Assembly (NCBI GenBank): GCA_012295275.1
Contig: CM022665.1
Span: 23,746,001 to 23,810,000 of the forward strand
DNA length: 64,000 nucleotides
Direction: 5' to 3'
Source: Chrysomallon squamiferum
Lineage: Eukaryota; Animalia; Mollusca
The notes under the pieces were generated by a model. That model saw nothing but the letters and a program-made list of their open reading frames with translations, searched no databases and had not been told where the DNA came from. The position numbers and the translations under genes are program-made. This document shows positions 2,886 through 42,527 of this stretch, one piece after another; the first letter of the stretch is position 1; the number at the start of each line of letters is the position of its first letter.

Positions 2886-5627
2886 GTTATTATTATTATT
2901 ATTTTTAAAATTTAAAAACATTTTAAATATAAAAACAAATATGAAATAGAAAAAAATCAAACACAATTAATATGCAACTTTAACTTGGTTGCTTTTATTT
3001 TAACAATGGCCATGAACAGTATTGAAAATTATATACATTTTACATCCAAGCCAAGCAGCAGGTTAAAAGGAATGCATGAATATTAGTTTAACAACACAAC
3101 ACATTCTATTGTTAATGGTTATTGTATTATGATATGAGAGATAAAATCTGATGCTGCCACCTACAGTGTTTTAAGCTACCAGTAGGAAGAAATCTTTAAT
3201 TCAATATCATTCGTTTTTTGCTCTGGGAAAGAAAAAAAACCCCAGAATTTACCATTATTATTGTTATCATAATCATCATCAAACTGCAGTCAAGAATCTT
3301 TTACATGAACCTTCCCATTCACTTCATGCATCATTTTATGAATCTGAATCAGGTTAAGTAGCTAGTGCAGTCTTCACCAGAAGAATGTCTTTAAGGATTT
3401 CTTACTTCATCATTTTAATATTAACAGTTACTTGAAATCTAACATAAATCTAACATAAAAAGGAAATGCAAGAGAATACAGAGCTCTGATTGGAGCACAA
3501 ATCAGTTGAATTGGAACATCACGGAGAATAGAAACTGCAACAAATCATGCTTCAACATAGCACTCCATGCAGTTCCAGTCTGAAATTTTATCCATGACTT
3601 CAAAAGCCAGATTCATGAGTGAAAATAGAAATGTTCTGTGATATTCTGCAAACCTTTTAATATCTTTTTGACCAACCTGGTGAATTTATGAAGATTGTTT
3701 CTTTTGACATTAAAAAAGTATCATCAAAACTTAGTTATTATCAGCACAAATTTCAAATGTTGTTGGGCAAAAATATTTAGTTTGTTTACAGGTGTAACTA
3801 ACCCTGCTAGAGCTATTTATACAGCACCTGTAGGTAATGAAGAACTGGAGATAAAAATGAATAGGTCAACAGTATCTATAAAATCTTGAATTTTTTGTTA
3901 CTGCTATCCAGTATGGTAAATCTTTTTATTAATGCAGTGTCTTGTAGTTATATTTTAACAGCTTCTTTTTCACTTGAGCAAAGAACGTAACATACTGTAT
4001 AGGAATGTTTTATTTCTATTTAATACAACAAGTTAACAAGAAGTATATTAAATTCAGTTAATTTATAAAATTTATTTAAGGGAACATGTACCTTCTTTTA
4101 TTATTTTGTACACAACTTTCTAATATCACAATTTTGTAGCAATAACATGAAACAGTTATTTAAGAAATCAAAAATAACAGTGGTATCAAAATACATTTGC
4201 ACTAAACATGGTAAAATTACACTTAACAAAGATATAAAAGTTCTCCACTAAACAATAGCAAACTGCTTATTGTATTTCATAATATAAATTATATTAATGA
4301 ATCAAATACTTCCCTTACAAAAAAATTGTTTTTATTTTCCTTTCTGTATAATACAGTCATGAAATCATCAACAGATTTCTGAAAAATGCAGATCTACTAT
4401 TACAAATTTTGATACACACAATTTAAGAACACTGTGTAGTGAACAAAGAAGAGAACAGCACATGTTTAATGCCACAAAGAAAACATTTAAAGGCTTACAT
4501 CAGTGTAATATTGGTTGCTATCAAAGGTGCCCATTCACCGACTGGACTGAAAATACTTTATTGGTTGAATACAAACAGTTTAAATAAAATTTATAACTGC
4601 AACCTCAAATCTTCCTATATATTTTGACACAAAATAAATATTTATTCTTTATCATATGATACTGCTGCTCACAAATCTGAGCATTGTTATGATAATTAAT
4701 GAGGTCATTTGTTCACATCTAGTGTGCTGACGAAGGATGCAGAAAATAAGTCTGAATTTTAATTTAAACATCAAAAAATATTAACATTTTTCACCCATCA
4801 TTTTCAAGTGTTTTTATGAATTGTTTTAATCGTGTTTTAATAAGTCCAGTTTATCTGCTAATACAAACTTATTATCCCATTTACTATTATGAAGTTATAA
4901 AATAGCTTCTGTCTTAAACAATATATTACAAAACTGCAGAATATTAATTTTATTTTGTTACTTTAAGGTAATTTAGGTTTTAAAAAAATACGCAAACTAC
5001 ATCCAAGACAATGATATTAGATAACAGTATGACATAAGCAAATTTATCAAAATGTTAGTAACTGTGTATATACTAGATATCAAATATTAATAAAATACAA
5101 TTAGCTCTACCCTCAATATCGTAAGATATCATATTCTGATTCAGAAGTCCAAACATACATCTGTAACATAAATCAGCTAGCAATTTTTAAAATATTAATA
5201 TTTTAAGTAATGATGAATGAAAGACAGATCCCCCAAAAAACGTTTTTACCATTATTTTAGAAAAATATTATACAAAAGGCTCAATTTGCAATAAAAATAA
5301 AGTAATAATAATATTTACAATTAAAATATAAAAATCTTTTAAGAATCTTTTCTCTGAACATTACTGAAATTACAGATAAAAACAAAAAACATGATTCTGA
5401 AAATCAACATTAAAACAAAAACATTAAGAAAAATTTGCATAAAAGGGACTCTCTATATATTTGTCATCACACCCCAGAACTTTCTTAACTAAATCGAACA
5501 ACTCTTAAAATCAATTATGGCACTATAAATTAACTTAAATATTTTACATTAGTGGTGTTACTGATACAGGTAACTAATAAAAAATGTAGAGATTATAATT
5601 AAAAATTTGATCTGGACGAGTGGTGTC

Positions 5628-6164
5628 TCAGCCAACAACAGCAGATGTACACATTGTATTTAGCCCACACACCCCAGCTCCTCGATACACCCGATAGTAG
5701 CCCTGAAAATAGAATAAAAACAGCAAGTTAAAAAAAAAAAAAAAAACATGATATTATCAGTAGTCCATAAATTGGTATAGAAAAATATAGTAAAAACAAA
5801 AAAGAAGAAGAAAATTACCACTTTATTAGATGAAGTATAGAAAAATATGGTAAAAATAAATTACACTTTACTAGATCATGTATTCAGATTATAACAGTTC
5901 ACAAATAGGTCTAGAAAAATACAGCACAGCATGTGTGTATACTTCATATTTCTGGCTGTCCTGTGATTTATTTATTTAGAATGAAATCCATTTCATCTAG
6001 CAGTTCTCTCCCTTTTCTGAGATACTATTTTAATTTTAAATACTGGTATTTCTTTCTTTTTTTGTAATCAAATAATATATAAATATAACATATGCACATA
6101 CATGTACAGCCTTTGAACATTCTATATTAAAAATGTAAGGAAAATACAAAAAAAAAAAAAATAA

Positions 6165-6204
<40 letters not shown>

Positions 6205-6621
6205 CATTAGGAACACTGTTTCTCACACATCCACACACACAAAGTACTAAAACCAGTTACCAAATAATCAAATAAACAGCAAATGGAATTATTATTCATT
6301 TTTAACATTAAGGCAGTTACTTTAAAACAAAAATATCCAAAATAAAATGCTTCTTATTTAAAATGAAACTGTTAAATAAAACATTAACACTTCAAAGATC
6401 TTTCCAAAGCACAACGTTTTTGTACTGCACTCACCTTTTCACCCCAGCTTTCTCCCCAACTGTTCTTGATTATCCAATAGGGCTCATTTCCTTCTAAAAT
6501 TAATAAAAAATGTAATTTGTTATCACTATTCAGAGTATTTAACCAGATAAATATACACATTTGGTTAACAATACAGAATTCAACAGTAATGAGAAAAAAC
6601 AGTGAACTAAGTCATACACTC

Positions 6622-6693
<72 letters not shown>

Positions 6694-6722
6694 TCTCTCA
6701 CACACACACCCACACCCACACA

Positions 6723-6756
<34 letters not shown>

Positions 6757-9700
6757 TGCACATAGATTTTATGTTTTTTATTTTATGGTAAAATATGAAA
6801 TTAGCTGTAAATTGTATCATTTGATTATCTTTCAAATATTTTCAAATGAAATAAAAATAAATAAAAAAAACAACAAAAACATCTTACCAACACCATATCC
6901 AACAATAAGAACTCCATGATCCAAATGCCTAGGGTTGCAGAAAATTTTCCAGGGATACGAAATTCCTCCCATGTAGAACTGTTAAAGGTACAAATATTTT
7001 GCATAAATGATATTAAAAAATAACAGAAAAAACCCAACAAGAAAACAAATGCCAAATGACTATCTACCACCCCAAAAACAAAACAAGAAATTATATAAAA
7101 AATAGTAGTCAATATATAGTTTTAAAAAGGACAAGAAAATTAATAAAATAACATTGATATTAAAAAAATAAAATAAAATGTTCTCTTAAATAACATTTAA
7201 TTTACTTTAAAAATAAAAATCAATAAAAAAATCCAACCTATCCACATTACTAATTTGTAAAGAATACATACCTGCATTGCATTAGCATTAATGCCAATGG
7301 AAATTGGACCATTCTTAACCAGCCAGGCAGCCATATCTGAAAGAAAAATCATTTAATGTCTCATTTTTTATTATTTAATTCACTTTTTAATGTCAAATGT
7401 ATTTTGGAACTCAAATTTTGCATATTAAAACATCAGTATTTAAGCAGTGTGAAAAATAATAATTTTTTGTTGTCGTTATTAACAGCTTGAACGAAAATAA
7501 AGTTGAGTAATAACTAAGTTCAAAAAGTGTATAATATTATAATACCACATTTATCAGGTAAACTTTATAAACTGAAAATGTAGATTTTAATTTACAAACT
7601 ATTTTTTATACTGCATATTAATGTATTAACTAAAAACATAATTATCATTGCTGAATCACATTTAAATTAACAAAAAACGAAACCAGCTTCTGAGAAAAAA
7701 AAAAAAAAAAAAAAAAAACAAGTATAGACACAAATAAGATTATTTCTGATTAAACAGAGCATCACAAAACATTTTAACCAAGCAAACTAAAACAGTATTT
7801 TACCTTTCTCATTGCTGGAGATATTTAGGGCTCCATTGATCTTCACGACAACTTTGGTCCTGTTGAAAGTACACTTCTCATCCTCTCCCTCGTAGCTGTA
7901 GGCCTTCTCAGACTCCAGTCCTCCTACAAACAGTGAACACATGTACGTCACTTCTCTCAGATTTTAATTAAAATACCACCAACTGACTGGCCTAGCAAAC
8001 ACACAAAAAATCAATAAACAAATAAATAAATAAATAATAAAATAAAATAAAATAAAATAATAATAATGGAATGCTGAAATGAGAAATTAACTGCAGACTT
8101 CTTAATCAAGAGCCATTCTGAGTTTTTGTGATGTGGACTGCGAAGATACAAGATGATGATTTTACTACAGAATTAAATAGACAAGATCTTTTTTGAAAGA
8201 CAAATAGCAATGAAAAATTACATACATCTGGATAGATTATCAAATAATAATGTGATAATCAGAATATCTGCCAAACACTCTCACATAATCTTGTTAATCA
8301 AAACAACTTAATAACCATTTCTAAAATAAATTGTCATCACATTTTCCTTTTTGATATCTTTTTATTTTTTGTTATTTTGTAGACAGAATTTATTTCTTTT
8401 TATAATCATTTCATTGTACAAAACAATTAAATAGGTAAATATAACAATTAAACAAACATGGATAAATGAATAATCTCACTTTCACATAAAATACTTCAGC
8501 CCACCAGCAATTCATAAAAAATAACTATATATAACAATTCATAACAAACACAGCAAAAGATATAATTGTGTATACATAACACACACAGATAAATATTTTA
8601 CAAAATACTTTTTAATTTCAGTGCCTGTTCACAAAGACATAACTGTGTATACATAACAATTCAAACATAAATGGATAAATGTTTTGTAAAATACTTTTTA
8701 ACTACAATGACTATTCACACTGATTTATATTTATTAAACTCTGTATGCTATTTAAAAGAGCTCACTGAGTGTTATGAAAAAAGAAACATTTACAAGTTGT
8801 GAGGTTTTGTGATTTTTCACCTAATTTCATGATGGCTTTGTAAGCATTGGACGGCAGTCCTCCACCACATCCTTCATCCAACTTGTCACAGTCAACAAGC
8901 TCTGAAACAACAAAATAAATTTAAATCTTTACAAAATCTATGAAATTTAATTCTGGCGCATAGTGATACATTGAATCGTAAAGCCTGGTTGGAGGATATT
9001 TTTAGTAAAAGATTTTATATATATATATATAAAATCTGAATGCTGTCTACTTCGGCTTCCAGGTGTAAATTCCAGAACAAAAGAACAAGTTGTATAGTAA
9101 ATAGCATTGACCACAACTGCACACAATTTTGCAAGTACAATCGCTTTATAATTTGGACATAATAAGGCAGCTGTGTCAGATAAAATGATCACTCTTCTTT
9201 GAATGCTTAATAAACAATGATGTCATGTTTCCTGTAATTACTATATGCATCTAGATGAACAAGATTATTTTTTAGTGTGTATTGATACATTTATTCATTC
9301 ATTTAGTTCTGCATGTTTTGTGTTGTCTTATGGAATTCATTATAATGGCAGAGCGACCTAAAAAAATGCAACATATCGAATATTCAATACAGTCCAAAGT
9401 GAATTATTAGAAAATATTTTAATATGTGTAAACAGAAAGATTTATCCAATTTAAAACACAGTGACAAAACCAATACTTCAGCAGACAGAAAATGAGTAAC
9501 GAATGACAAATTCCAAAATCTGAATGGATTGACATTCCACACAAATTCTTGTACATTAACATTAAATTAAAACAAATTAAATCTTTTGCAGACTTTTGTA
9601 ACAGATGCTGAATATGGAGGCCATGACAGAAAAGTCTGCTTTGGAGAGAAACATGAAAAGAGTCATCAGTGACAGACTATTTCTCAGCTGACACTTGATA

Positions 9701-9845
9701 GACATTTAACATTTGTAATAAAACATATTCCAATTTCATGTCATTTTAATCTTGTTAATCTAGCACTCTGTCTGAAACAGCTTATTTTGTTGGTCCCAAG
9801 TGAATCCACATTTTACAGAGTCCACTGTATCTATATCTATCTATC

Positions 9846-9877
<32 letters not shown>

Positions 9878-12800
9878 TCATGTGTATGTGTGTGTGTATA
9901 AATATACACATATATGTGTATATTCATATTATATGTATATATATGTATACATATGTATGTATCAGTGGTCTCCCCAGCATTTGTGAAAGGGATGGCGGGT
10001 ATTGGTGTTACAGGTGCAAGTTAAACAAAGGGTTGGTACAGAAAATGTTCAGGGTACAAGTACTTTGAACAATGTTCAAATTACTTGTTTGTCAAAAATA
10101 CTCCTTTAAATAATAATACTTTGACAAATTATTCCTACTGAAGTTAAGTGTGGACTGTGGTGAATAAAATTTAGGGATAAAGAATTTTCAGATCAGTGAT
10201 AAATAAAATAAATAAATAAATAAATAAAATAACTTAACTTCTGCTTCATCAACATAAGTAAAAGCTTTTTTTTTTTTTTACAACATAAATAAACAATAGA
10301 TAACAATTTGCAGTTAAAATGTTTAATGATTCTGTTCAAAATATGGCAGTGTATTATCTTTTAGTGCTGTTTGTTATATTTTTTTTAAGTATTACTTTTT
10401 ATGGTTATGATTAATTTGCTAAATATGTATCTCTTAAATATTTTTTTTTTAAATGATATTCATCGTGTTTTAGAAACAGAAACTGAAACATAATATACAG
10501 ACTAAACTTTAATTAAAATTCAAAAAAAACTAGGAAGCAAATTAAACCAACACAAAATTTTAACAAGCTATAATAATATTCTTTTTCTGTATAATGACCA
10601 CTTCGTGATACATTATGCAACACATTGAGTGTTATCGAGTAACCTTTAGAGAAACCTCTAACAGATGTACAGTAACACTAGATAACTTATCTTCCTGTGA
10701 CCATGAGTCACCAAGCACATTACAGAATAATCAAATTTCTCCCTCTACAGTTTATTTATTCAGGTCAGCTAAAGAAAAACATACGTAGAAACATATGTTA
10801 AAAAACCACAAAAATAACAAAACAACCCAGATAAAGTAATAAAATAACAAACATGATAAAAAAAATAAAAAAATAAAATACTGAATGAATGAATAAATGA
10901 ATGGATGAATGAATATTTATTAACACACACACAAAACTAAAACATTAACCCATTTACCAACAACTATCAATGAAAACAATCTACTTTAATTACATAAAAA
11001 AGGACATGAAACAAAGATATAAAAATATTTTTATTCAATTTGTTTTATATCCAAGTAGATTCATTTTAAAATGTCTATCAGATATTTTTTGAAATACTGA
11101 AATCAGCAACAGCAGCAGCAGAAAACGAAATCAATTTTAAATTATAATATGCAAATTAAAAATACAGTGTCCTTATAGTTTTCTGTTTAATCCACATTAG
11201 TTCATTCATTCATTCATTGTTATACTTCCCATTCCAACAATGCTCAAATGTGTATCAAAGATATTTTTATTCTAATTAGTAAAAAGAGCCCAGATTACAA
11301 AAAAAAGCCCATTTTCATCTCTAGCAGTATAATGATTAAAAAAAACTACATTGTTTTCTTCAGTCTCACAAATGCAAGTACATAAATGTATTTTACCTTG
11401 TTCTGAGAGTGACAACAGTTTGTCTTTTTGTATCGCCCACTGACCCTCAATGTTGCCAGTTGTAGAGAATGCCCAACATGATCCACAACTACCCTACAAA
11501 AAATAATAACATTAACATAAAATATATAACTAGAATAGATTCATTACCAATATTTATTCAACCATTAAGGGCTTTTTTTTTTTTTTCCTGAATTAGTTTT
11601 AAAGATATTTTTGTTGAATAATGAAATACCACCATATTAGGGTTTTTTCAGGTGTGTGGAGTTGTTTTTGAAATTATTTTTTTTGTTTTGGTTATTTATT
11701 TAACTTATTTTTTTTTTATTTTTTTTTTTGCTTTGGGAAAGAGTCTTTTTGTGATGTTTCTTTTGGATGCAGTATACAGTAGGTTATGATAATTAACTAA
11801 CCTGGTTTTTAACAGGTGTCACTGCATTATGATCTCTCCAATCAAAGGCTTTTGGTAGTTTTAAAGCTGGAATTTTTGCCGTTTTCATGATGTCCTGACC
11901 ATAATTGGTAATCTGATCCCATGGTTTGCTTTTGTAAGCTTGAAATTCCTCATCTAAGAACACACAAAGAAAATACATGACAAATAGCATGACATTAGAT
12001 GATAGGAAAACCATAACAATGATGATCATGATGGTAATAATGACAATAATAACAATGACAATCATAATAACAAAGGGAAAAAGAAGAGGTGGGGAAAAAG
12101 ACCAGCATTTATATTCATATCTTTGTTGTTGAAAACATGCCTTTCTGGCACTGCTGATAATGAGATGTTTTCATACTCCAGTTCAAAATATTTAATATTT
12201 GAACAGCATGAGAACTTGCAGTTTAGGACTGATTAAGAATATAAGGAAATACATTATCATCAGTAACATTTTACCTGTAAGATCAGCAAACTTTGTAGCT
12301 CCATATACAGCAGTTCCTTGCTCAGACTCATTTAGCTTTTTAGCTTTCCTCATATTCATGCAGAAAATGAAAAACCTTGTGTCACGTTCTAGGAAAAGAA
12401 AACATATGGTGAGCTAAACGTCAAGTTCAGAATAATTTTGCAGTAGCTGAAAGTTTACTTAAACATTTGGCAGTTAACTAAATTTTAAACATTTAGTGAT
12501 ATCAATGAAAACATCATCGAAGATCAAAATAATATCTAAACAAACACTGTAATTCATGTACACTTGATTTAGCTAGAAAGAAACAAATGAAATGAAATGA
12601 ATGAATATTTATAAATAATAACTCAATTTAATATGGGTAGTTATTGGTGTTAGTAATATGGTTCTTATATAATGATGCTTAAAAGAATAAAGTCTATGGG
12701 CATACTGATTAGAAAAATGTAATTTTTTTTTTAAATGCACATTCATATAGTGATGAAAGTACATATTAGAGCCTTTGATATAATGTATTGGCTTGAACAG

Positions 12801-14359
12801 GATATGGGTTATAGGTGCACTAAGAAATGATCCTGCAACCATTTGCATGAAGAGAATGCATGATTAAATTATAAAAAAATGTTAATTATCTGTCAAATTT
12901 AAAAAACAGCATTAGCAGTAGTAGTAAAAGTACCAGTGGTAACAGGAGTAATAGTAACAGTAATAGTAGTAGTAATAGTAAAAACAGCAGTAGAAATAGT
13001 GGTAGTAATAGCAGCAGCAGCAGTAGTAGTAACAGTAACAGTAATAACAGTAATAGTAGTAGTAGTAGTAGTTGTCATTGTAGTAGTGATAGTAGTAGTA
13101 GTAGTAGCAGCAGCAACAGTAGCAAAATAACGCTGATTAAAAATACCTTTTTCAGAGTAGATTTTATTATATTTCATCTGGAAAGCTTTGAATGGTCCAA
13201 CCTGGTCATGGCAGTAGTCTGTGAGATCTCCACCCAGTGCATTCTGGGTCTCCACAGGTTGCTTACCTCCCACAAGGGGCAGAAGTGGTGGAACAATGTC
13301 AAGCAAACCAGGCAGAGGCTGATTTTTTTTCTCAACTGTACTTCTTGGTTCAGTTTCAGGCTAAAAGTTAAATATAGTGTGAATTGTTGATATAATGGCA
13401 TAAAAGCATAATAAAAGCAACTGTACTAGTGTCATGATTCCCTATCCAACAACAAACAAACAAACACAGTTTTTCTCAAAAATCATCCAACAAGCTCCTG
13501 ATCTAATGTCAGCAGCAGCAGTTAAAAAATATACATGTCTAATCTATTTAAAAATATATATTATTAAATAAATTAAAAAAAAGAAAAAAGAAAATGAAAG
13601 AAAGAAAAAAAAAAAAAAAACAGCTTGCATAAAGTTAACAATATCATGATATAGATGACATACAGAGAAATGTATTTACAACTGAAATTAAAACAGTGTG
13701 CATGGCTTGCTGTGAATGAAACAGATTCTGCAGTTATGAGATTACATGAAATAAAACATCAGTTTCAAATAAATATCAAACAAATTAAAGAATCAACATA
13801 TCATTATCATGATACTAAACTGGGCACTGAGAAGCTTTTACACTGCCAACAGTTAATTTTTTTATATATTTTTTTTTCTGCTTGTGTAAGTAGATTAGAA
13901 GATGCAGGATAGGTAGTTATCTTTTCAACTAATTAGCAATTTAAGTCTAAATCGGGCTAGTTCTCTGCTATGTTTTTTCATACTGAAAGGAAAGAATGAA
14001 GCATTCAGCAGATTTTAATCTAGTCATTTGGGATTGTACATAAAACTGGAGCCACAAAGAGAATTAAAGAGGAAGCTTGCTGCCACTATAGCGCAGTCAT
14101 GGGAAAACACAAAAGATGGCCTCTGATAAACTAGTCACTGGGCACAGGTAGAGATATGAAATTCTCCTAATGCGTGCTCCGAGTGGGACTGATGATTACA
14201 TCTAAACCCTACATCCTAACAAGTGCTACAGTCTGTCCCTCCTGTCTAGACTCTCTTGACACTGCCAAATGTCTTTGTGAAAACTGTTTTTTGATCAAAA
14301 ATGTTGTGTTTGTTTAATTATTATTAACATCATGATTATTATTGTTATTGTTATTGTTG

Positions 14360-14419
<60 letters not shown>

Positions 14420-17400
14420 ATTATTCATTAATTAAGCCTCTGAGTGATTTGAATATGAACATGATTAATCATTAAGAAAATTTTGTTTTCTCATTCTTTT
14501 TTGTAAAATAATAATGTATATGCTTTATTTGACAAACCTCCAATAATTATATGAAAAATGGGCTAAACAATTGTTGTAACAAAATATTTAATGTGCATAT
14601 AAAACACAATTTATCTACTTCTTCCATCACACATATATAAAATACATATATCAAGGCAATTTGGATATTTTTAAAATGATTGATTGATACTGCATTACAA
14701 TAAGGTTTCTGTATATACACAAATTTTTATCTGTCAAAGCTACTGTAAAATGGATTTAACTGATATTATTTTGGATTTTAGAATAGGAAAATTGACATGT
14801 GGCAGATAATAATAATTTAAGTCATAGAACTTGTAGGTGAAACTATTTGTTCATCATAATCTATTGGGTCTCACAGCAGTTTTGTTTCTCACAGACTATT
14901 TGATGAAATTTATCTCCGAAAAATGAAACAAATGCTGACATATGTTAACACGTGTGCTTCTGTGCAATTTGGGTAATTATTGGAAAGCTTATTAAGTTGA
15001 TATTTTGATATAAATTAGGATTAATTTTTGACGTGTTAGTTAATGAATAACCTCTTTGCATAACTAATACAGTCTGTTACATCTGTTATTTCAATTTTTT
15101 TATTAATCAGCTTTAAAATTTTATTAAAAAATAAAAAATAAATAACGAGATATTTGCAAAATGTTATTTTACCAGTAGATCTCTCCCAATGCAGTTAATA
15201 TTGGCTTTATTTTACTCCTTTTTTTTTTGTGAATTAAGATTAAACAATGTAGCTGCTAATCAATATGTATAATCATTTATGTTATGACCAAACTTAACTA
15301 TAACAGATAAATCTTTGTGACTGAGAAACATAAAAATTATTGCTATGTTTAAAGTGAAAAATCTCCAAAGTCTATCACTTTTCTGCATGTTCACAATTTA
15401 TTAACAATTTACATTATAATGGTTAATTAATAGTTTTCATATTGAACTCTGATGAACAGGATAAATAAGAAATATGTTTCTCTTTTTGTTATATACACTG
15501 TATAGAGCATCCCATAAAGGCAGCTAGTCAGAAATACATGACAAATGAATGGAATGAATTTCTAACACTTTAAAGAAATATTTATTAATGTTCTGTGAAC
15601 ACATTTCTTTTAACAGTAAAATTGAACTTTTCACAAATTGTATTTTATTTTTCTGGTTTGTAAGGGTTTGAATCTCTTTTCTTTGAATAGTACATGTGTT
15701 TGGACTTCTTTTTTGTTATTATTATTATCTTTACAGTGAAACTAATATTAAATTGAAAGCTGAATCCACTACAGTGATGGCTTCTACCATTTTATAAAAT
15801 GCTGAATCAACTCATGTATGTATGTATAAGTAACTACGTATCAATCCCAGTCTAACACAAACTAAGTCATTTACAAAGCAAGTCAGTTTTCTTCATTTTT
15901 CATTTACAAAAACTGACTAGTGTTTCAAAGTGAATGACTGGTATATTATTAACACGACTGTTTTGGTAAAGAGCATGTTGTACTGAATATATATTTATAT
16001 ATAGAAAGTTATATTTATTTACACAATGAATAACACACTGTCACTGTATTGATGCATAGAACAAAACAATTTGAATGATGTTCTACATCTATGACTTGGA
16101 CATTTTACCCAAGTTTATAAAATTATAAAATTTTGTGTCAGAACCTAACTGTTGATAACTTAAATGTAAAATCCTTTGTCTACACTCCTCACATACTGTT
16201 CCAATAATGAGTAAATTTCAGTGGCAGAGAAGGTATTTTGGCTTAGAATAGAGAAATACTTAGTCTAATAAATAAATAAAAAATTAAACAATAAAAATAC
16301 CTTCATTTCAGAGAACAGTACAGATAACTTAAAAAGCATAATGTGCAAATCAGTTAGTCATTTTGCCTTTTTATCAAATTTGTTTTGAAACTTTAATTAT
16401 GTTACAGTGTTAGTAAAGTGTTAGTAAAGTCAAACTAAAAATTAGAAAAAGCAAAAGTAAGGAAACAAAATTGACAGCAGATATTAAAAACAAAAGAAAA
16501 TGTATTAATTATATAAAAAAAAACACAAATAACTGAAACAGGTTAAACTTTTTTTTATTATTGTAAACTGTTAAGTAAAGTTTTTAATTTACAAACTAAA
16601 CAAACAGCAAAACATTAAAAAGAAGAAGAGAAGTAAAAAATAAAAAAATAAAATACTTCATTGAGGATCCCTTATCCAAAATTCAGAAATACAAAATTTG
16701 TAACATTTAATGAACAGCAGAAATAGTGATATCTTACAGTTTTTGGATTGTTTTTCATATACAAACTTTATTTTATTCACCATATTATTAAAATTATCAA
16801 ATAAAAAATACTGCAGATTATTCATACAAGCTGTATGTGAAATATAACTGGAATTCATATTTAGACTTGGATCCTATGTTCAAATCTGAAAATATTCTGG
16901 TACCCAAAACATGGCCAATCTCATGTATTTTGAATAAGCGATTCACAATGAGTATAAGAACACATTTATTTTTATTATTTTCTTTTTTCTTCTTCTTTTT
17001 TTTCAGTTTAAGAAATAATATATTTCAGTTAATAAACTGTTTAGTGAAGAAAAGAAAAGAAAGAAATAAAAAAAAGATGAGGATAAAACAAAATCTCTCA
17101 GAAAAGCTGTTAGTATCAACAATGACACATGCTAACTGCCAACACACAGAGTTCACTGAAAAAACAAAATTAAATGACCAAACTAACAATCTTTGACTTC
17201 CAGATGAAGTTATCCTCATTCACCACGAACCTGTTTAAAATGCTTTAAGTGTGCACATAATTAAATGTTAATGAACTTCTAAAATTAGTTATTCTAGAGC
17301 AGAATAAATAAAAATAAAATCATTATTCTTATGCAAGCAATTAGTGTTATCATTTCTATATTTTTTGTCTAATAGTGAATTATCTTATTAACCTGAGGTC

Positions 17401-17782
17401 ACTGTTAATGCCAGTGACATTAACATTTAAATAACTTTAAACTTAAAACAAAAACATATCCAGATATTTTAATTACAAATTTATTCTTTCTGACAGAACT
17501 CTGTGCACACTGAAATATTAAATAAGAAATTTAAAAACACATCCAAACATTTATTTACACTAAATTACCTGAACTGGCCTGCAGTTGTCACTCAGAAGAG
17601 TGAATTGTGGATTTTGCCAAGCTTGGAAAAGAACTTCCATGTTGCAAATCTGTTCCTATTTGAAAAATAAGTAAACAAGCAAAATGAATGAATATTTGTA
17701 CGTTTAACAACATCTCAGCAAATTTTACATCAACTGTTTGATGTCATGCAGACTACGTTAATAAAACTGTTTATAAATCAGA

Positions 17783-17823: not shown

Positions 17824-18140
17824 TTATAAGAATGCTTAATAACACCTCATTACATTTTAGAGTTATCAGGACTTGTTTGTGTTGGTGAGAGAAAGTGTAA
17901 CAGTGAATGTTTTTCACTGGAGCAAACAAAATTAAATTTATCTAACGGAGAAACTGATCCGAGACAGAAAAAAAGTATTATTTTATCACAACAACACTAA
18001 CCATGCCACCGTTTGTCTGAGGACATTCCCCTAGTCCCTTTCCTTTGTTTACATCACTGTTTCTGCATGATGTCTCAACCAAATGTACAGTAAAATAGTA
18101 TTTCATTCCAGCTACAACCTGAAATAATCACAAAACAATG

Positions 18141-18175: not shown

Positions 18176-21100
18176 ATAGTGAAATATTTTATAAACTTGA
18201 AATTTATAGAAAAATAAATTGGTAGGTGTTCATTTTTCAGAACGAATTCTATTTTCATGTAACAAGCTGACTCGTTTGTGTTCTAATATAAATACAAACA
18301 AGAAAATAAATAAAATTTTACAAATATTTTATCTAAATATATTATGAATAAAATGACATATCATTTCAAATATTATATTTTTATTTGCTTTGTTTTAAAA
18401 ATTCAAAATGAGAAACATTAATAAGAAATGAATAAATTATTATTTTGAAAAACAAAAAAAAAACAAAAAAACACATGTTTTGATGTAATACCTGGTGATG
18501 AACATTGCTAACTGAATTGGCAGCTAATCGGAACAACGAATTGGACTTCGCATTAACTTCATCAACTGCAAATGCAACAGCTTTCTGGACTTCTTTAGTA
18601 AGGTGACCTGGTTCAACACCACCAAGAACATTTCTAACTTGTCGCTTCCTAGAAGCAGAACAACGCTTTTCAAGCAGGACATAACTGTCCAACCAGACCT
18701 GTGTCCAAAGCACAAGATGACATCTCTCTTGCTGAAAATGAAACAAAATTTATTTTATCTTTTACTTCAGAATAATTTCACTTGAATTCAAATAAATATA
18801 AAGGTAAAGGTAACTTAATTCCATGTAAAATTTAAACACAACAAAGCCAGACTTTAAATAAGGTTTAATTTTAATTTAATTAACATTATTGGGATGATTT
18901 TGGTTAGTTTTGGTTTCTGTTTTTTTTTTTTGTTGTTGTTGTTTTGTTTGTTTTTTGGGGTGGGAGGAAGTAAGGTTGTTTTTAAAGTTTTAATTTTTAT
19001 TCACATAGAATTACACAAAATAATACACTTGATGAATTAGTTTAATTATTTTATTGTTAAGAGCAGTGCATATTGTCTTCTGGTATATATACTATACCCT
19101 AATAATTGTCTGAAACCCAGATGATCAGTCAGTTAGAATGTAAGAATAACAATCATGAAACATTTCATATTCAACTTCTAATATCTTGATAGAAGCAGTA
19201 ACTTACCACATTCTCATTATGAACTACCAGATCAAAGAAGTACTTTATGCCAGATACAACCTGTAAAATAAATTTTAAGATTAGTTCAGACAGTAGCCCT
19301 TTGAAAATGTATTAATATTTATCTTCATCTAAATCCATAATTATATAAGACATACAAAAACATTTGTTTTGAAACCTTAAGCAACAGAAATACAGACATC
19401 ACTAATATGTAATTTACCATATATATTATGGAGTGACAAATTATTTTGTTTATTTTATCATGCAATTGTTACAAAATTTTTTTTTTTTAATAATAATAAT
19501 AATAATAAAAGGAAGAAAGGAAAAAAGAAAAAGGAAAATAAAGAAAATTGCAGTGGTTATGGATGCAGGTACAGCTATATGCCTCTGCCACATGTAATTA
19601 TCTTTCAGTGCTGTAAAATGATTTTTTGAAACCAAAATAAAAATATACCCTTTCCACAAAGGACAAAGTTAAAGCAAATTAATAATAATTCATTCATTTA
19701 CTAACCATTCAGATGAAACGGCTGAACAGAAAAACTGTGATTAAAATGTTTATCACCAATAACAACTTTAATGCATTAAATAATGATTAGCTTTAGTACA
19801 TTACAGAAATGATATATCATCTTCACCAAAACCAAAAATATTTGTAATTTGTATTTGTAATTTTTGAGAAGAAATACTATGAAAAAGACAATAAACGACT
19901 TGTTCTTTCGGTATATGTTAAAAACACACACAAAATAATTATGATAATTTTCTTTCATTGATCTTTAATCCTAATATTACTAGATACTAATGAATCCTTG
20001 AAATAAAAATAGATATGACCAGAGTTTCTATTTCCCTACCAATACTTCATTCTTATTTTTTTTTTCATTTTTTTTTTTTTTCCCCTTAAAGGTTCAATCC
20101 ACTTAATGACAATTACACTTTTATGAAATGCTGAAAATAAGCCACTAAGGTTAATTAATGATCTGCGCCTGTGATATTTAATGCACATTTATTAAACATT
20201 AAACAAAGGACAACATTATTTTTAACTGTCAAGTTCTTTGGAAAACAAAATATTAATTACTTCCTTTGTAACTAAACAACTGTTTTTAATTTTTCAGTCT
20301 GTTTTCAGTAACTGTTCCAAAAACAATCCTAACCCTCAGAATATAGAGTCTTCAATAGTTTATTATTCATGATCAACATGCTGTTACTAACTGCAACTGT
20401 TTTATATTGTACTGGGGTTTTCTTTAATGATCTTATCTGTATAGTAATGACCAATACAAAATTAACAGTTAATTAGACAAAAAAATAAAAAATAAAAATA
20501 ATAACCATAGCATCATTAATTTTGTCTTTCCTTGTTACTTGCTCTGTATTATATACTAGGTCACTGATTAGATTAAATTTCTTAAAATCAACTGGCTTTC
20601 ACATACACAAACGTCAGTATTTTCATAGATGGCCTGCTGCATTATAAAACAGCACAACATACAAAGACATCAAAAAACTTAGTCACCAGCCTTGTGGAAA
20701 TAAACATAAATTGTTGGTATCAGCACATCAATAAATGATTTTTTTTTCTGATTTCCAAATTCAATTCCCTGACCTTAAGTGTGAACCCTGTGAAGATACA
20801 GAAGTGATTATGACACTGAATAAACTATGGATTTAAAATAGTAACCTATATTGTGATAACAAGGTTACAAAGGTAATCCTTGTGATGATGATGTAACTAT
20901 GTGTATTTGTGTTTGTTCTACAGTGAAATCAAGATAGTGTATCAGACAGAATTTCATGATGTGCAGCTTTGTTTTAATTCAAATGAAACCGATTCAAAAA
21001 TGTATCCGATATGGAAAAATTAGTGAATTTACTACAAAACCATTTCCTGTTAACATAAAATAATAGTTAATATAATAATAATAATAATGAAACAATAATA

Positions 21101-21695
21101 TACTTTTATATATAAAGAAAAATATAAAATTTACTTTATTAAGTAGTGAAATTGCTCATGGAATAGTACATTAATCATCTGATGATACAAATTTATTTTA
21201 TCAATGTTTTTTAACACTAAGTATTTAAAAAAAACGTTGAATGAACACTACCTAAGTAAGCTGAAGGTCATGTTTAAATAAAACAACTAGTTACGTTATT
21301 TCAAATAATTGGGAAATAATATAAAAAAATAAAAATAATAACAATAAAATGAATAATTATTATAATATCTGTCAGTAAAATTAATTAACGTTACTAACAG
21401 TGTGAGTAACAACTTTTATCTCAGTTAATAATTCTCAATATTAATATGTACATATTTTTTTTTTGCAGTGTTTTAATCACGTTACATATTAAATTTAAAA
21501 ACATACTTGTGTTTTTGCTCTCTGTATGGTGACCAACTCTCTGTTAGTGTTCTCTTCTGAATTCAACACTGTCACTGCAATCTGAGCCATTTTCCGTATG
21601 TCTTTGCTTTGGACATTAGCGTTTACCGGCCCACCTACGAGTCCTCCCAAACCAAAAACTGTTGGTAAAAACACCAACAAAATTAAAATATTCAT
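5628..21695 (-). CDS. CTSF: Cathepsin F-like papain (C1A) cysteine protease with two N-terminal cystatin domains, 15 coding exons, 584 aa
   Basis: Exons 5'->3', all GT-AG and phase-consistent: 21695-21507, 19260-19207, 18731-18492, 18118-18002, 17655-17569, 13360-13147, 12388-12275, 11953-11802, 11493-11397, 8901-8821, 7923-7804, 7336-7272, 6978-6888, 6493-6435, 5702-5628 (1755 nt). Motifs: signal peptide [15 protein letters not shown]; cystatin QVVSG and QVVAG; ERFNAQ-type propeptide [20 protein letters not shown] followed by [16 protein letters not shown]; [25 protein letters not shown] (catalytic Cys); [11 protein letters not shown] (His); YWIIKNSWG (Asn). Confidence 0.95.
6624..6755. repeat. 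Compound (CT)n(CA)n microsatellite
   Basis: Directly visible in the sequence. Confidence 0.95.
12912..13125. repeat. Imperfect (GTA/GCA/ACA)n trinucleotide microsatellite in cathepsin F intron 6
   Basis: About 210 nt of gtagtagca-type triplets. It accounts for the poly-Thr and poly-Val ORF artefacts. Confidence 0.9.
13985..14240 (-). mobile_element. Highly decayed SINE copy in cathepsin F intron 5
   Basis: GC-richer patch with remnants GAGGAAGCTTGCTGCCAC and AACTAGTCACTGGGCAC. Similar remnants occur at 3066-3320. Confidence 0.3.
14330..14430. repeat. (ATT/GTT)n microsatellite
   Basis: Directly visible in the sequence. Confidence 0.9.
17216..17230 (-). CDS. Candidate alternative terminal exon of cathepsin F (VRGE-stop), giving a 233-aa cystatin-only isoform
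   Basis: Minus strand reads ttttaaacag|GTT CGT GGT GAA TGA, about 340 nt after the phase-0 donor of exon 5. AATAAA-like signals lie downstream near 16980-16965. The same exon is present in the duplicate at 35309-35323. Confidence 0.5.
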   Translation of the reverse strand, partial: VRGE

Positions 21696-35370: not shown

Positions 35371-35552
35371 TTTTTTTTTTTTTTTTTTTTATATTTTTAC
35401 AGTGAACTCTGTGTGTTTGGGCAGTTAGCATGTGTCATCGATGATAGTAACAGCTTCACTGAGAGAGTTTTTTTTATTTATTTCTCTTCTTACATGTCTA
35501 AATTACTTATGATAAATAAATTAACATATTAAGAATAAAATAATTTTGACCT

Positions 35553-35554
<2 letters not shown>

Positions 35555-35621
<67 letters not shown>
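35555..35621. repeat. (CT)n microsatellite
   Basis: Directly visible in the sequence. Confidence 0.95.
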
Positions 35622-35624: not shown

Positions 35625-38600
35625 ATTTTGTATTTACCTTTTTACTTTTAATATAACATACTTTTACTTTTCTTTGCTTTCTATTTTTCTAATTTTTAGC
35701 TTGGCTTTACTAATTTTGTAGTAGAAAAAAACCCAAAAGCAAATATACATTAAAAAAAGGAGAATGTCAAATAGATTTCCTCATAATCTTGTTGAAATTC
35801 TCTCTTCACAAAAATGAAATTTTTTAAAATTATTTTAATTAAATACTTCATCCGGTTCAGTTTTATTTCACTATACAACAAATCAAAATTACATATTCAG
35901 GAATCACATCGTATATTCTGTTACCACAGTGATTCGTTCTACATAGTAAATTAAACCATATAGATATAAAACTAAATCGCCGTATAAGATACTGAATCTA
36001 TGTTATTTACAAATATGCTGTGCACAGAAAACAACTCATCTCATCAGCATATAAAATCTAATAACTGACCAATAACCCTAGAAGCTTTAATTTAAAACGA
36101 AGAGTACAAGTTAAAAAGAAGAAGAAGACGAAGAAGACGCGCATTAATAAGTCTGCCAGTAAACAAACGGAACACATTAGTATTCATGGACATTAAATTA
36201 TGTACACACCTTAGCTGGAGGCGATGAACATCAGCGGTTTCGATAATATGCTTCGTCGCTTATAACTGAATAATGATGCAACCTTATAATTAATTATTCT
36301 GTTATAATAATTAAATTTGTTTCGCTTTTACCGTATGATGTAATTTTCTTTTAACAGTTCTATTCTTCAGTATACAATTAAATTAAATTTTCAATATTCA
36401 TTAAGATACTGTTATTTTTATTTTATTTACTTCTTTTTTCTTTTTTTTTTTTATTAATCTTCAGTTTATTAAATTAAATACACTTTTTGAAGTTTTAAAA
36501 GTTACTTAAACGTGCATTAAACTAACCGCCTCTTGTAAAATTAAAAATATCCCCATTTCTCTTATTAAACATCCATACTGATGGAGTAGTACGTATTTTT
36601 GTTAATGTTACCTATTATTAGTTATCTATTTATATGTGTATGAAGTATCACTTGCTAAATTAAAATCATCTGATTTACAGAGGGCTCACTTTCTAATATC
36701 ATATTTCATGCCGAACAGTAACAGCCTGAGAAAATATATGATTTTAGACTTTTAAATTACTTGCTCATAGCTTAAGAGAATCAACTAAATTATTAAAATA
36801 TTTACCTCTGTTACAGTTATAATTCTTAAACAAGTGAAAATACGTATTTAGCCGTTCTAAGCCACAGTTGTATTACATTTAATTTATCAACAGTAGGTGT
36901 CAGCTTCTGATACAAAATTTAATGATTTTATAAACTTGGGTAAAATGTCAAAGTCACTGATGTACCACGTCATTAAATTATACAGAAAAAAATAAAATAA
37001 AATAAAATAAAAAAATTGTTTCGTTCTAGTCATCAGTACACAGTGACAGCATGTTATTCAGCGTGTAAATAAATATAACTTTCAATATATAAATATATAT
37101 TCAGTACAACATGCTCTTTACCAAAACAGTCGTGTTAATAATATACCAGTCATTCACATTGAAACATTAGTCAGTTTTTGTAAATGAAAAATGAAGAAAA
37201 CTGATCTGCTTTGTAAATAACTCAGTTTGTGTTAGACTGTGGCTGCGAGAGATTGTTGTATTAAACAAATTTTGGCCTTAGAGTATAATGGTGCTAAGGA
37301 CCTCGGAGTGACCGGTCACAGACAGGTAAAAGCGAAAGCCTGTTTAACTGTATGTATGTAAATAACAAGTAATTCATCGAAGTAAATATTAGTTCCATAT
37401 GTATTATTATGTAACTACGTAGCCTGTTCACCGAGGGAAAATACAGGAAATATTTCAGGACAGTTTTATATCAAAGGAACCACTCGTAAAAATGACAACC
37501 AAAAGAAAGTCATCGCGATGTTAAATTATTTATTACGTTTTCTTTTCTTTTTAAAATAGAAACAAACAAAAAAAAAAAAAAAAAAAAAAAGTAAAAAAGG
37601 TCAAGTATATTACATTTATATTTTATTATGGTCCCTTCCGCTACCACCTTTCATTCATTTTTGGTTGTGATCTATTAACTGCCAGGTAAGCGACGGTAAT
37701 GTTGTTTAAGGGTTTTTGTTGTTTTTTAATTATTATTATTATTTTGTTACGCCTGATATATGGAATAGAAGCTGAGAAAATGACTTACAGACTTTATTTA
37801 AAAGTTTTCTCATAATTTCCTATTAATTAAGATGTTTTTTTCTACATTTGCCATGGTGTTCTTTAACGATGCCAAAAAGTATTCATACAGGTCAATTCAT
37901 GTCATTTAATCAACTTTATTTATTAAATAAATAATTACGCATAATGTTTGGTTTATTTGTTTGTTATTGTTGTTTTTTTGTTCTTTTTTTTTCACATCTT
38001 AAAATTGGTGGCAAAATGTGCTTCTTATCGTGTGATGCATTTTCTTAATCTATGTAAATTTATTTGGATATATCTTGTGCAAAAACAAACAAAAGAAATA
38101 TAATTTTACTTATTGATAATTTAACGATTGCACTTTGCCCGATAGAACCAAATGTTATGCTATTTCTCAAAAAGTATATACAACTATTAATAATATTCCA
38201 TTGTGGTTTTGATAGTATTCTATTGTTTTATCGTATATTTTTAATTTTCGTGAAGCATCAATGTTTAGTATTTATTTATATATATTGAAAACATTTTTTT
38301 TTTTTTTTTTTTTTAATTCGCCCATTTCAAGAACAATGACCCAGCTATGCATTTTTATCAGAACTGGAACTGGTCGAGTTACACCTGTTGGGTGACGTAA
38401 CGACCACCCTTTTGCAAACTGATTATTAGCAAATATTGTTTAGTTTTATTTCATAATAAAATCTCAAATTTCAAAACTTAAAATTGTAATAATAAACTTG
38501 ATAGTTTGCATTTGCTTCAGATGAATGCAAACCAAACATAAGCTTTGTTTGCATCAGTTGAGCTTTGATTCATTTTCCTTATATCGAAATACGGAAGGCG

Positions 38601-39444
38601 TTTTCATTAATGGGGTCGGGTCACACTGCATCCAATTTTGATGCTAAATCCGCAATAAACTATGCCGCCTATTACCTGGCGCATGGGGTCAAGATCATTC
38701 ATTCCAAGATAGATACACCCATAGAAGCAAACTTACGGAAATAAAACAATGATAGATTATTATTTAACTTTTCTGTGTGCTTTTTTTTTGTTTGTTTTTT
38801 GCTAATGATAATAAAATTTGATAAACTAACACTACTCCCCACTCGCTAAAACGGAAGTACAGGCCGACATGCGTATTTGCGCTTGCTTGGATGATGAGTC
38901 ATCGAGCATCGAGCTTGTTGCGAGATGGGCGGGGTCACACTTCTTATTTATTGTGCGATAATTATCCGCCTTTAATACTGCGCTTCGAAACCAACAGAAA
39001 AACCGGTTTCGCTAGGGCGTCCTCGTTGCGCTTTCCATGAATCCGGCATTCATTTGTGATGCGAAATGGTTATTCGTTATTTAGTACAATATATTTATGG
39101 TTAATTTATGATAAAATTTAAGTTATAACCAATATTTTGTTAAAATCACTGTAGATTTGAGAGAGATAAAAAAAAATATATATTTAAAAACACTGTAATG
39201 CAGATTCAGCTGCTGACAGAATATTACCTGCAATAAAAATTTGTCACGATTCGTTGCATTCCTTATGTGTATCAGTTATTTGGTTTCAAAACTGAAAAAC
39301 AAACAGAATTCTGATTACCGTAATGTTTATATTTTATATTTTTAAGTGATGTTACATGGAAGAGGTGGATCAGTTATATGCACATTATGTTTTAAATATG
39401 CGTATGTGTGCGTATGTATTTGACACAGTGGAAATTTCTTAAAG

Positions 39445-39499
<55 letters not shown>

Positions 39500-40141
39500 A
39501 TTAAGTATTCATTTACGTTTAACATAATTTTAATGAGTGTTAGATTTACAAATTTATTAGCTAGTGCAGCTTATACATCTTTTTCCCTAATCTGAGCTCT
39601 TTTTAGTAATTAGCATCAAAATATCTATGATACACCTTGGAGCATTGTTGGAATGGGAAATAGGACAGTTAGTGAAATGGTTTGATTAACACGACACACT
39701 TCAGTAATATAACAATTAATACAGTCAGTGACTGGTGGTCACTGGAAGATAAGTTATCAAGTGTTACTGTACATCTGTTATTTCAGGTGACATGATAATA
39801 CTACCTATTCCTTAATCACAAAACTGCATCATATGATGGTCTTAATATTAAAATCTACATTTTTTTTAATTGTTATCTTTTTTATTTATTTATTTATTTA
39901 TTATTTTTTATTATTCAAGTTTTGACTACTTGTTAGGTGTGCATTAAATTTCCGTTTCTTTTCTTAAGTAACTGATATATTTTTTTTTGATTTTTTGTAA
40001 CATATTTTAAAAAAATAAAATAAAATAAACATATCCAGAAAAATGTCTTAAAATTATGTATTTAAATTAACAGATAATTCCGTATCTTTAAATATTTTAA
40101 CTTGCAATTGTAAAATAAAAAATATATATATATATTTAGAG

Positions 40142-41049
40142 TTAAATTTCATAGATTTTGTAAAGATTTAAATTTATTTTGTTGTTTCAGAGCTTGTTGA
40201 CTGTGACAAGTTGGATGAAGGATGTGGTGGAGGACTGCCGTCCAATGCTTACAAAGCCATCATGAAATTAGGTGAAAAATCACAAAACCTCACAATTTGA
40301 AAATGTTTCTTTTTTCATAACACTCAGTGAGCTCTTTTAAATAGCATACAGAGTTTAATAAATATAAATCAGTGTGAATAGTCATTGTAGTTAAAAAGTA
40401 TTTTACAAAACATTTATCCATTTATGTTTGAATTGTTATGTATACACAGTTATGTCTTTGTGAACAGGCACTGAAATTAAAAAGTATTTTGTAAAATATT
40501 TATCTGTGTGTGTTATGTATACACAATTATATCTTTTGCTGTGTTTGTTATGAATTGTTATATATAGTTATTTTTTATGAATTGCTGGTGGGCTGAAGTA
40601 TTTTATGTGAAAGTGAGATTATTCATTTAACCGTGTTTTTTTAATTGTTACATTTACATATTTACTTGTTTTGTACAATGAAATGATTATAAAAAGAAAT
40701 AACTTCTGTCTACAAAATAATAAAAAATAAAAAGATATCAAAAAGGAAAATGTGATGACAAATTTTTTTAGAAATGGGTATTAAGTTGTTTTGATTAACA
40801 AGATTATGTGAGAGTGTTTGGCAGATATTCTGATTATGACATTATTATTTGATAATCTATCCAGATGTATGTAATTTTTCATTGCTATTTGTCTTTCAAA
40901 AAAGATCTTGTCTATTTAATTCTGTAGTAAAATCATCATCTTGTATCTCTGCAGTCCACATCACAAAAACTCAGAATGGCTCTTGATTAAGAAGTCTGCA
41001 GTTAATTTCTCATTTCAGCATTTCATTATTATTATTATTATTTTATTTT

Positions 41050-41085
<36 letters not shown>

Positions 41086-41500
41086 TTTTTTTTTTTTCAG
41101 TCATTTGTTTGTTTGTTTATTGATTTTTTGTGTGTTTGCTAGGCCAGTCAGTTGGTGGTATTTTAATTAAAATCTGAGAGAAGTGACGTACATGTGTTCA
41201 CTGTTTGTAGGAGGACTGGAGTCTGAGAAGGCCTACAGCTACGAGGGAGAGGATGAGAAGTGTACTTTCAACAGGACCAAAGTTGTCGTGAAGATCAATG
41301 GAGCCCTAAATATCTCCAGCAATGAGAAAGGTAAAATACTGTTTTAGTTTGCTTGGTTAAAATGTTTTGTGATGCTCTGTTTAATCAGAAATAATCTTAT
41401 TTGTGTCTATACTTGTTGTTTTTTTTGTTTTTTGTTTTTTCTCAGAAGCTGGTTTCATTTTTTGTTAATTTAAATGTGATTCAGCAATGATAATTTTATT
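40142..41500. repeat. Near-identical inverted repeat arm matching about 8950-7635
   Basis: Reverse complement of the parent region covering exon 10, intron 10 and exon 11. Only scattered substitutions and microsatellite length differences are visible. Confidence 0.9.
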
Positions 41501-41963
41501 TTTAGTTAATACATTAATAGGCAGTATAAAAAATAGTTTATAAATTAAAATCTACATTTTCAATTTATAAAGTCTACCTGATAAACTTGTATATAACATG
41601 GTATTATGTAATGTAATATTGAACACTTTTTGAATTTGCGTATTATTCAACTTTATTGTTGTTTCAGCTGTTGATAAATATATTTTTTAGATTTTTTACA
41701 GAGCTCAAAAACTGACGTTTTGATATGTAAAAACTGTTGTGTACAAAAATATGTCTGACATTAACAAGTGAATCAAATAGGATATCACCATTTTTATAAT
41801 TTTTGTGTTGATGTTGGTTTTGGGGATGTCATTTCATTATTTGGGATTTTTTGAATTTTTTTTTTTCTGTTGTTATGTTTTTAATATCATTTCTGCCGAA
41901 CATTTTAAATTTTAGCAGTTTTATATGGGAGGATTTTCATATCCTGGGAAAATTGTCCACAAC
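40191..41963 (+). pseudogene. Orphan protease-domain exons of the cathepsin F duplicate
   Basis: 40191-40271 ([21 protein letters not shown]...) and 41211-41330 ([11 protein letters not shown]...) are identical to parent exons 10 and 11. 41919-41963 is a decayed exon 13 (FYMGGFSYPGKIVHN vs [15 protein letters not shown]) that ends before the catalytic His. I found no counterparts of exons 6-9, 12, 14 or 15. Confidence 0.85.
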
Positions 41964-42075
41964 TGGGAAAAGTTTTTATATAGTCTTTTTAGATCCATTA
42001 AAACTGTGTAAGTTAGAGACCACATCTTTTAGCTTACAAAGAAAAGAAAAAAAGTTCTACTGGAGACTGAGACTG

Positions 42076-42260
<185 letters not shown>

Positions 42261-42463
42261 TCTCTTGTACCTGGTACACAGATGTGGTGGAATTGTTTAG
42301 TTTCCAGATGAATCATTTATTAACATTTTTAAAGAAAACTTCTTTGTATAATAAATTTTAAATCTCATTTAAATTTGTATTTTACACAGCTCTACACTTA
42401 TAAACTTTTGAAAATTTTATACTATTTTACCATTTAATTTTATATAAATAATTTCTGTACCTG

Positions 42464-42527
42464 TTTGACACCCAACAGTCTATCCATTACTCATGCTGGG
42501 GAATTGTTAAACATTCATTCATTCATC
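42464..42527 (+). mobile_element. SINE 3' tail ending in (ATTC)n
   Basis: TTTGACACCCAACAG...TGCTGGGGAATTGTTAAACATTCATTCATTC. A related tail occurs at 34795-34855, with its inverted twin at 17685-17745. Confidence 0.4.

Follow-up and report, generated by a model that had tools for sequence, protein, structure and literature searches.

A probable alternative last exon in a gastropod cathepsin F gene produces a message for a predicted protease-free, two-domain cystatin

Precursors of the cathepsin F/multicystatin-C1A type include one from Manduca that Miyaji reportedly described in 2010. Both fused multicystatin-C1A proteins and free multicystatins are known architectures (PMC2784779, PMC10380794, PMC12653315, PMC4398375, PMC3407033), and the available text of PMC2784779 describes a repeated, independent origin of multidomain cystatins. 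Invertebrate fusions such as the Gigantopelta aegis protein XP_041353230.1, those of insects and Daphnia (PMC3407033) and SbCAF of Sycanus (PMC12653315) have the same layout as the gene analysed here, with a signal peptide, tandem cystatins, an I29 propeptide and a papain domain. In the available sections of these papers they are described as one fused precursor, whereas at our locus there is also an mRNA without propeptide and protease. The role of the cystatin domains in invertebrate cathepsin F is left open in the text available from PMC12653315 and PMC4398375. A literature search whose scope left out most subscription journals and supplementary files found no account of a cystatin-only cathepsin F isoform.

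Our window, the whole stretch of 64,000 nucleotides of Chrysomallon squamiferum that was analysed, is AT-rich animal DNA with a GC content of 26-35%. It contains a cathepsin F gene on the minus strand (21695-5628; Table 1), which we call the parent, and an inverted duplicate of it. Our model of the parent has 15 exons with GT-AG at every intron and yields the 584-aa long form of the original prediction, with the catalytic residues of the papain domain (Cys395, His531 and Asn551) all present. I29 propeptides of this group carry an ERFNAQ-type motif, and the model reads E-x3-R-x3-F-x2-N-x3-A-x3-N, with Asn and not Gln as the last residue. The nearest protein is the cathepsin F-like XP_041353230.1 of G. 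aegis (P0001; 594 aa), with 409 of 593 residues identical to the long isoform and 90% identity in the mature protease part. This protein has two PF00031 cystatin stretches, a PF08246 I29 propeptide and a PF00112 papain domain, and its best solved match is human cathepsin F (1m6d; 295 bits, versus 233 for the next structure). By its sequence the long isoform is a cathepsin F (C1A, F subfamily) and a predicted protease. RNA contigs of 3718 and 3743 nt would end at 3008 and 2983 if they are colinear with the genome, around the AATAAA at 2999.

Table 1. Coordinates of the parent gene, its two 3′ ends and the inverted duplicate, in positions of the window.
Feature	Positions	Strand	Remarks
Exon 1	21507..21695	-	Begins cystatin domain 1, after a signal peptide judged by eye; PF00031, E = 4.5e-5
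Exon 2	19207..19260	-	Completes QVVSG loop of cystatin domain 1
Exon 3	18492..18731	-	Dibasic linker between the end of domain 1 and the start of domain 2; PF00031
Exon 4	18002..18118	-	Completes QVVAG loop of domain 2; exon 4/5 joint as loose end in 3/3 RNA runs
Exon 5	17569..17655	-	End of cystatin domain 2; phase-0 donor common to both isoforms; parent-type contig, 0 mismatches, 3/3 runs
Exon of original prediction (candidate)	17216..17230	-	Weak acceptor; inside short-isoform intron; unused in the RNA examined
Alternative last exon	16538..17155	-	TGA first, then 3′ UTR; start from RNA joint, end predicted
Exons 6-15	5628..13360	-	Linker, I29 propeptide, papain-type protease (Cys395, His531, Asn551); exon 5/6 loose end in 3/3 runs
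3′ UTR of long isoform (putative, 2.6 kb)	2983..5627	-	End near AATAAA at 2999; from contigs of 3718 and 3743 nt, assuming colinearity
Near-identical tract shared with duplicate	17095..17603	-	Spans both candidate acceptors; likely gene conversion
Second near-identical tract	7601..8950	-	1327/1350 aligned bases against dead half of duplicate; internal control for conversion
Duplicate exons 1-5	30441-30620, 33350-33403, 33826-34059, 34441-34557, 34884-34970	+	Open 224-codon frame; GT-AG kept; inhibitor motifs altered
Duplicate homologue of the 17155 exon	35403..35560	+	Longer T tract, TGA first, AATAAA at 35515 and 35534; candidate by homology
Decayed protease half of duplicate	36873..43412	+	Retains exons 10 and 11 (identical) and half of exon 13; 6-9, 12, 14 and 15 not recognisable

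Six public RNA runs contain the region, and we compared the contigs of X1, X2, X3 and X5 with the 701 bases at 17078-17778. X1, X2 and X3 are assembled contigs from three samples of organism A in one study; X5 (organism B, 0.06 share) has no contig on this stretch and is evidence neither way. The sole joint inside the stretch, found in all three organism A runs, connects 17569 to 17155, skips 413 nt with GT..AG ends, and is carried in each run by a 55-nt contig with 0 mismatches. Each of the three runs also has the end of exon 5 running into exon 6 sequence (13360), as well as one unbroken contig through 17131-17598. Transcripts of the parent thus do not all splice from 17569 to 13360, the original prediction's own counter-case. 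In X1, X2 and X3 the joint has a contig depth of 794, 435 and 1772, exon 5 one of 1903, 1178 and 3136, and the unspliced intron one of 19, 10 and 8. The joint therefore has 37-57% of the depth of exon 5, a rough figure because contig depth is a poor measure of expression, and the short form is far above the intron level. A 607-nt contig of X1 consists of exactly 30 nt of exon 5 plus exons 6-9. Its end coincides with the end of exon 9 (11397), which implies a branch there in X1, either a retained intron or another splice form.

We simulated five transcript sets as k=31 de Bruijn graphs and compared them with the observed contig borders. Only the set of long form, 17155 form and retained intron reproduces these borders (55 nt, 468 nt, 17569-17656 and 17160). 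On the 3′ side of the joint, as in the contigs covering 17078-17160, the RNA has exactly the parent's sequence, whereas the duplicate differs there by a 2-nt insertion, 5 substitutions and gaps before it diverges; the sole exon 5 contig is parent-type and unbroken. Since both are parent-type, and given the simulation, we conclude that the parent locus makes both messages. In a matrix trained on this gene's own 14 acceptors, 17155 ranks first among the 208 AG sites of intron 5 (score 6.95), and its first codon is TGA (17155-17153); the exon 6 acceptor scores -1.4 when it is omitted from the training. The claim that one locus gives both a zymogen and the mRNA of a protease-free, cystatin-only form is thus upheld by RNA and simulation as regards an alternative last exon in intron 5, but the exon starts at 17155 and gives 229 aa, not at 17230 with 233 aa and a VRGE end.

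Terminal-exon contigs of 623, 447 and 522 nt would have their far ends at 16538, 16714 and 16639 if they are colinear (the placed bases reach 17078), and hexamers occur in this region at 16976, 16970, 16777, 16772 and 16559. The far end of the X1 contig at 16538 would fall 16 nt behind the AATAAA at 16559, with a GU-rich tract downstream. Because the parts beyond 17078 lie outside the placed stretch and contigs cannot show RNA ends, we infer the poly(A) sites from these features; the signal of the short isoform is probably that at 16559.

We propose that the strong near acceptor at 17155, together with cleavage at an intronic poly(A) signal, would compete with the exon 6 acceptor, which is weaker and lies another 3.8 kb downstream. 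Joining exon 5 to exon 6 would give the 584-aa precursor with two cystatin domains, propeptide and protease, and joining exon 5 to 17155 would give a likely polyadenylated short mRNA encoding a predicted secreted two-domain cystatin of 229 aa. With its stop in the last exon the short message should escape nonsense-mediated decay, and the splice choice would set the inhibitor-to-enzyme ratio from one promoter. We put the probability of this whole reading, including a functional secreted inhibitor, at about 0.75; that the parent locus makes the 17155 form is highly probable.

Colinear inverted blocks run from 21699/30437 to 4847/43412, and because they extend over the whole span, the whole gene was copied. 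A 5′-only partial copy ending at the exon of the original prediction is rejected, as the homology extends to about 43400. Seven of the duplicate's ten downstream exons, including those of the catalytic Cys and Asn, align no better than shuffled controls. In exons 1-3, dN between parent and duplicate (0.29-0.48) is lower than dS (0.78-1.48), and under neutral substitution at 8-15% (indels ignored) the frame and splice sites of the duplicate stayed intact in 2% to 0.02% of 5000 trials, so that exons 1-5 combine an open frame and intact splice sites with constraint. The loops of the duplicate are degenerate (KTVSG and QSIAG) and its exon 4 acceptor is poor. No duplicate-type contig was found in the three covered runs at 80% likeness to the parent stretch 17078-17778, where contigs show presence and not absence. 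The protease exons of the duplicate may have been lost after it had come to use the homologous exit, and conversion may have patchily homogenised it with the parent. The suggestion that it had fixed the short isoform fits its structure, but no transcript of it was seen in the RNA runs. At 34411-34441 the pyrimidine tract of the duplicate's exon 4 acceptor is replaced by an AT repeat, and skipping this 117-nt exon would keep the frame. Its intron 1 has an insertion of about 1.65 kb (30754-32400) that is absent from the parent and in which we found no terminal inverted repeat.

Identity between the two copies varies from place to place, with 73% for exon 3, 82% for intron 3 and 99% (335/338) for intron 5a. 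The tract of 1350 aligned bases, 1327 of them identical, surrounds exons 10-11 and cannot be coding in the duplicate. This pattern is best explained by gene conversion between the copies, a caveat that the original prediction had itself raised and that is most likely right, since 98% identity is likewise found in the non-coding remnant of the duplicate. As dead sequence matches just as closely, the identity of the exon at 17230 is no evidence of function, and we rejected intron identity as a sign of selection. The loop-coding parts of exons 4 and 5 (18118-18071 and 17655-17604) are about 80% identical between the copies and the adjoining 3′ sequence 94-99%, and exon 5 has 11 replacement differences to 1 silent; the 80% loops may reflect selection against conversion, or merely the tract borders. 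At 17489 the intron contigs of X1 and X3 have the duplicate's base, although the two remaining sites that distinguish the copies show the parent's; this would be in keeping with a variant shared by ongoing conversion. In trees with rows taken from 151 proteins plus the two window proteins, parent and duplicate are joined when both domains are used (97/93; 20 hand-chosen rows), and with the unconverted exons 1-3 only (9 hand-chosen rows) all 6 inner forks are open. Over these three exons parent and duplicate are identical at 67 of 138 residues, no higher than parent and G. aegis XP_041353230.1 (74 of 144).

These features bear on the possibility that the short mRNA is real but young and unselected, the stop-first acceptor having arisen in the duplicate after the loss of its protease exons and having been copied into the parent by conversion. 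The acceptor does lie inside a near-identical tract, conversion covers dead sequence too, an AATAAA is common in intron 5 (within 600 nt of 76 of the 116 YAG sites), and no short isoform was found for G. aegis XP_041353230.1. However, the short form looks abundant by the rough joint depths given above, an ancestral exit would explain how the protease half could be lost with the open frame kept, and two Haliotis multicystatins, seen as proteins and not as genes, stop 4 residues past their last Cys. We consider such a by-product of conversion rather unlikely.

An HMMER search with residues 17-234 of XP_041353230.1 gave 626 matches at E 0.001, of which we examined the best 150. Among these 150 matches, 27 have protease or propeptide similarity by BLAST and 123 do not; 64 of the 123, a group in which some are visibly truncated cathepsin F, end at most 10 aa past the last cystatin domain, and 25 of those 64 are 215-265 aa long and start with Met. 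In a sample of 20 that we looked up, the named protease-free proteins come from Haliotis, Gigantopelta, Lottia, Plakobranchus, Elysia, Lymnaea, Arion and Physella. Judged from such proteins, free double cystatins are an ordinary gastropod product. We found no pair of long and short isoforms at 80% identity or more among 151 proteins from a library that collapses relatives above 50%, and no shorter relatives of XP_041353230.1 among 246 candidates of a word search that missed the 27-42% relatives later found by HMMER. The cluster of XP_041353230.1 has 1 member and no isoform label, and exon 3, used as a protein query, gave 99 candidates of which none qualified. Atlas feature matches, including a 223-aa, mostly molluscan cystatin cluster, score 0.78-0.86 and are leads only. 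The multicystatin-like gene and cathepsin F of G. aegis are on contigs that are both 120,622,278 long, and so probably on the same chromosome; two cystatin-only genes of Haliotis asinina likewise share a contig size and are probably on one chromosome.

It is conceivable, though on balance doubtful, that gastropod cathepsin F is an ancient two-product gene with a splice switch between protease and inhibitor, that free multicystatins arose repeatedly from duplicates that kept the short exit, and that the window shows both stages. If this is true, the parent represents the switch stage and the duplicate is caught midway, with remnants of the protease still visible. The order of isoform first and gene later would be a concrete route for the independent origins of multidomain cystatins that the available text of PMC2784779 describes. 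A protease gene that also makes, at an apparently comparable level, a message whose product is likely to inhibit the gene's own class of enzyme would be an unusual case of regulation, and free cystatin domains made by the animal itself would be a direct way to probe the role of these domains in invertebrate cathepsin F.

The short form has 229 aa, comprising a putative signal peptide and two cystatin domains; the terminal exon adds no residue, and the stop comes four residues past the last Cys of domain 2. PF00031 matches exons 1, 3 and 4 with E-values of 4.5e-5, 0.0039 and 0.0013, only exon 1 being above the curated cut-off, and the Atlas model of residues 100-236 of G. aegis XP_041353230.1 has a TM of 0.71-0.77 to cystatin folds. 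A Gly-Gly precedes each domain, and the first loops are QVVSG at 63 and QVVAG at 161. The available text of PMC2784779 gives an N-terminal Gly and a QxVxG loop as what defines inhibitory cystatins, and PW as the canonical second hairpin. In the second hairpins here, VW and AW, the Trp is kept and the Pro is replaced. Both domains thus retain the Gly and QxVxG, with which the short form is likely to inhibit papain-type proteases despite the replaced Pro. Six Cys at aligned positions 85, 105, 179, 193, 204 and 225 would form paired disulfides. The N-terminus is hydrophobic, a signal peptide as judged by eye, through which the product would be secreted or lysosomal. A dibasic Lys-Arg between the cystatin domains (exon 3; 33826-34059 in the duplicate) occurs in the parent, the duplicate, G. 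aegis XP_041353230.1 and several free relatives, and a convertase could release single domains there.

Cystatin-fold families without inhibitory activity exist, and the second loops of the short protein are non-canonical, so it could be made and yet have no part in protease inhibition; as a secreted protein of cystatin fold it might, for instance, be structural, bind a partner or act like a chaperone. We judge this to be unlikely: besides the intact Gly and QxVxG of both domains, the AW loop is common to the free multicystatins of Haliotis, Gigantopelta and Lottia.

The original prediction had placed the alternative exon at 17230-17216, where the minus strand does read ttttaaacag followed by GTT CGT GGT GAA TGA. 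Exon 5 (17655-17569) ends in phase 0, splicing to this CAG/G acceptor would be in frame and give 233 aa ending in VRGE, and AATAAA follows at 16976 and 16970. Its pyrimidine tract is weak, as had been conceded (5 of 12 pyrimidines), and the acceptor ranks 16th of 208 with a score of 0.45. Such a site is at chance level: of the 116 YAG sites of intron 5, 24 are followed by an in-frame stop no more than 5 codons away and by an AATAAA no more than 600 nt away. All 60 bases at 17230-17171 are identical in the duplicate, as stated, but that the duplicate naturally ends at this exon is not borne out: it carries a homologous acceptor of greater strength at 35403, its homology with the parent extends to about 43400, and the three RNA runs covering 17078-17778 contain no duplicate-type contig. 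The junction 17569/17230 is absent from the three RNA runs covering the region, in each of which the contig through 17131-17598 is of low depth and unbroken. Contigs drop rare variants, leaving room for trace use, but an intron path of depth 8-19 survived, and the simulated sets with a 17230 joint predict contigs of 32, 393 and 103 nt, none of which is seen. A 3′ splice site of its own that is used in RNA and competes with the downstream exon is found at 17155, 75 nt beyond, and not at 17230, which we reject as an alternative exon and regard as very unlikely to be a real alternative acceptor.

That the short transcript is the duplicate's, mis-assigned to the parent, is very unlikely and is rejected. 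The joint contig's 30 nt of exon 5 do occur in both copies, and the sampled animals may differ from the window sequence, but the joint is parent-type on its 3′ side and passes from there into sequence that the parent alone has. The sole contig of exon 5 is parent-type as well, and both simulated sets with a duplicate transcript fail, their predicted contigs being unseen.

Elsewhere in the window, the interval 22900-29800 between the two cathepsin promoters has GC-richer open frames and a weak HHH_7 match below the cut-off, which suggests a further gene; this may lie on the minus strand with its start at about 29770, in head-to-head orientation to the duplicate. At 44600-53571, also on the minus strand, exons with SAP and AAA_33 matches and Gly/Arg-rich ends lie tail to tail with the duplicate's remnant; from this domain set we take the gene to be hnRNP U-like.

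Free gastropod multicystatins (G. aegis XP_041355107.1, Haliotis XP_067681151.1 and XP_046554412.1, Lottia LOTGIDRAFT_172187, Elysia RUS89655.1 and Physella XP_059143279.1) resemble the short form in having at least 2 cystatin domains and a stop right behind the last one; several are 233-241 aa long, and they are 27-42% identical to it. They are annotated as separate genes, whereas the short form is an isoform of a protease gene, beside a protease-less duplicate. In secreted immunoglobulin mu and soluble receptors, an alternative last exon or intronic polyadenylation yields a secreted N-terminal fragment. According to the available text of PMC7041946, DAF-2B of C. elegans likewise has a proximal terminal exon, a truncation at a domain border, a secreted N-terminal fragment and escape from decay. 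Unlike in these cases, the fragment here would inhibit the enzyme class of the long form, and the terminal exon adds no residue. The macaque CTSF splice variants also involve alternative splicing of cathepsin F, but in the available sections of PMC5339500 it is an Alu exonisation that alters the C-terminal region. The exon at 17155 is used in RNA and is probably a true alternative last exon; the ingredients of the case (alternative last exon, duplication and conversion) are all textbook. In CTLA-2, Crammer and BCPI, free propeptide-like inhibitors derived from cathepsin genes, an inhibitory part of the precursor has become a gene of its own, but that part is I29 and not, as in the present gene, the cystatin part, for which a splice isoform may have been an intermediate stage.
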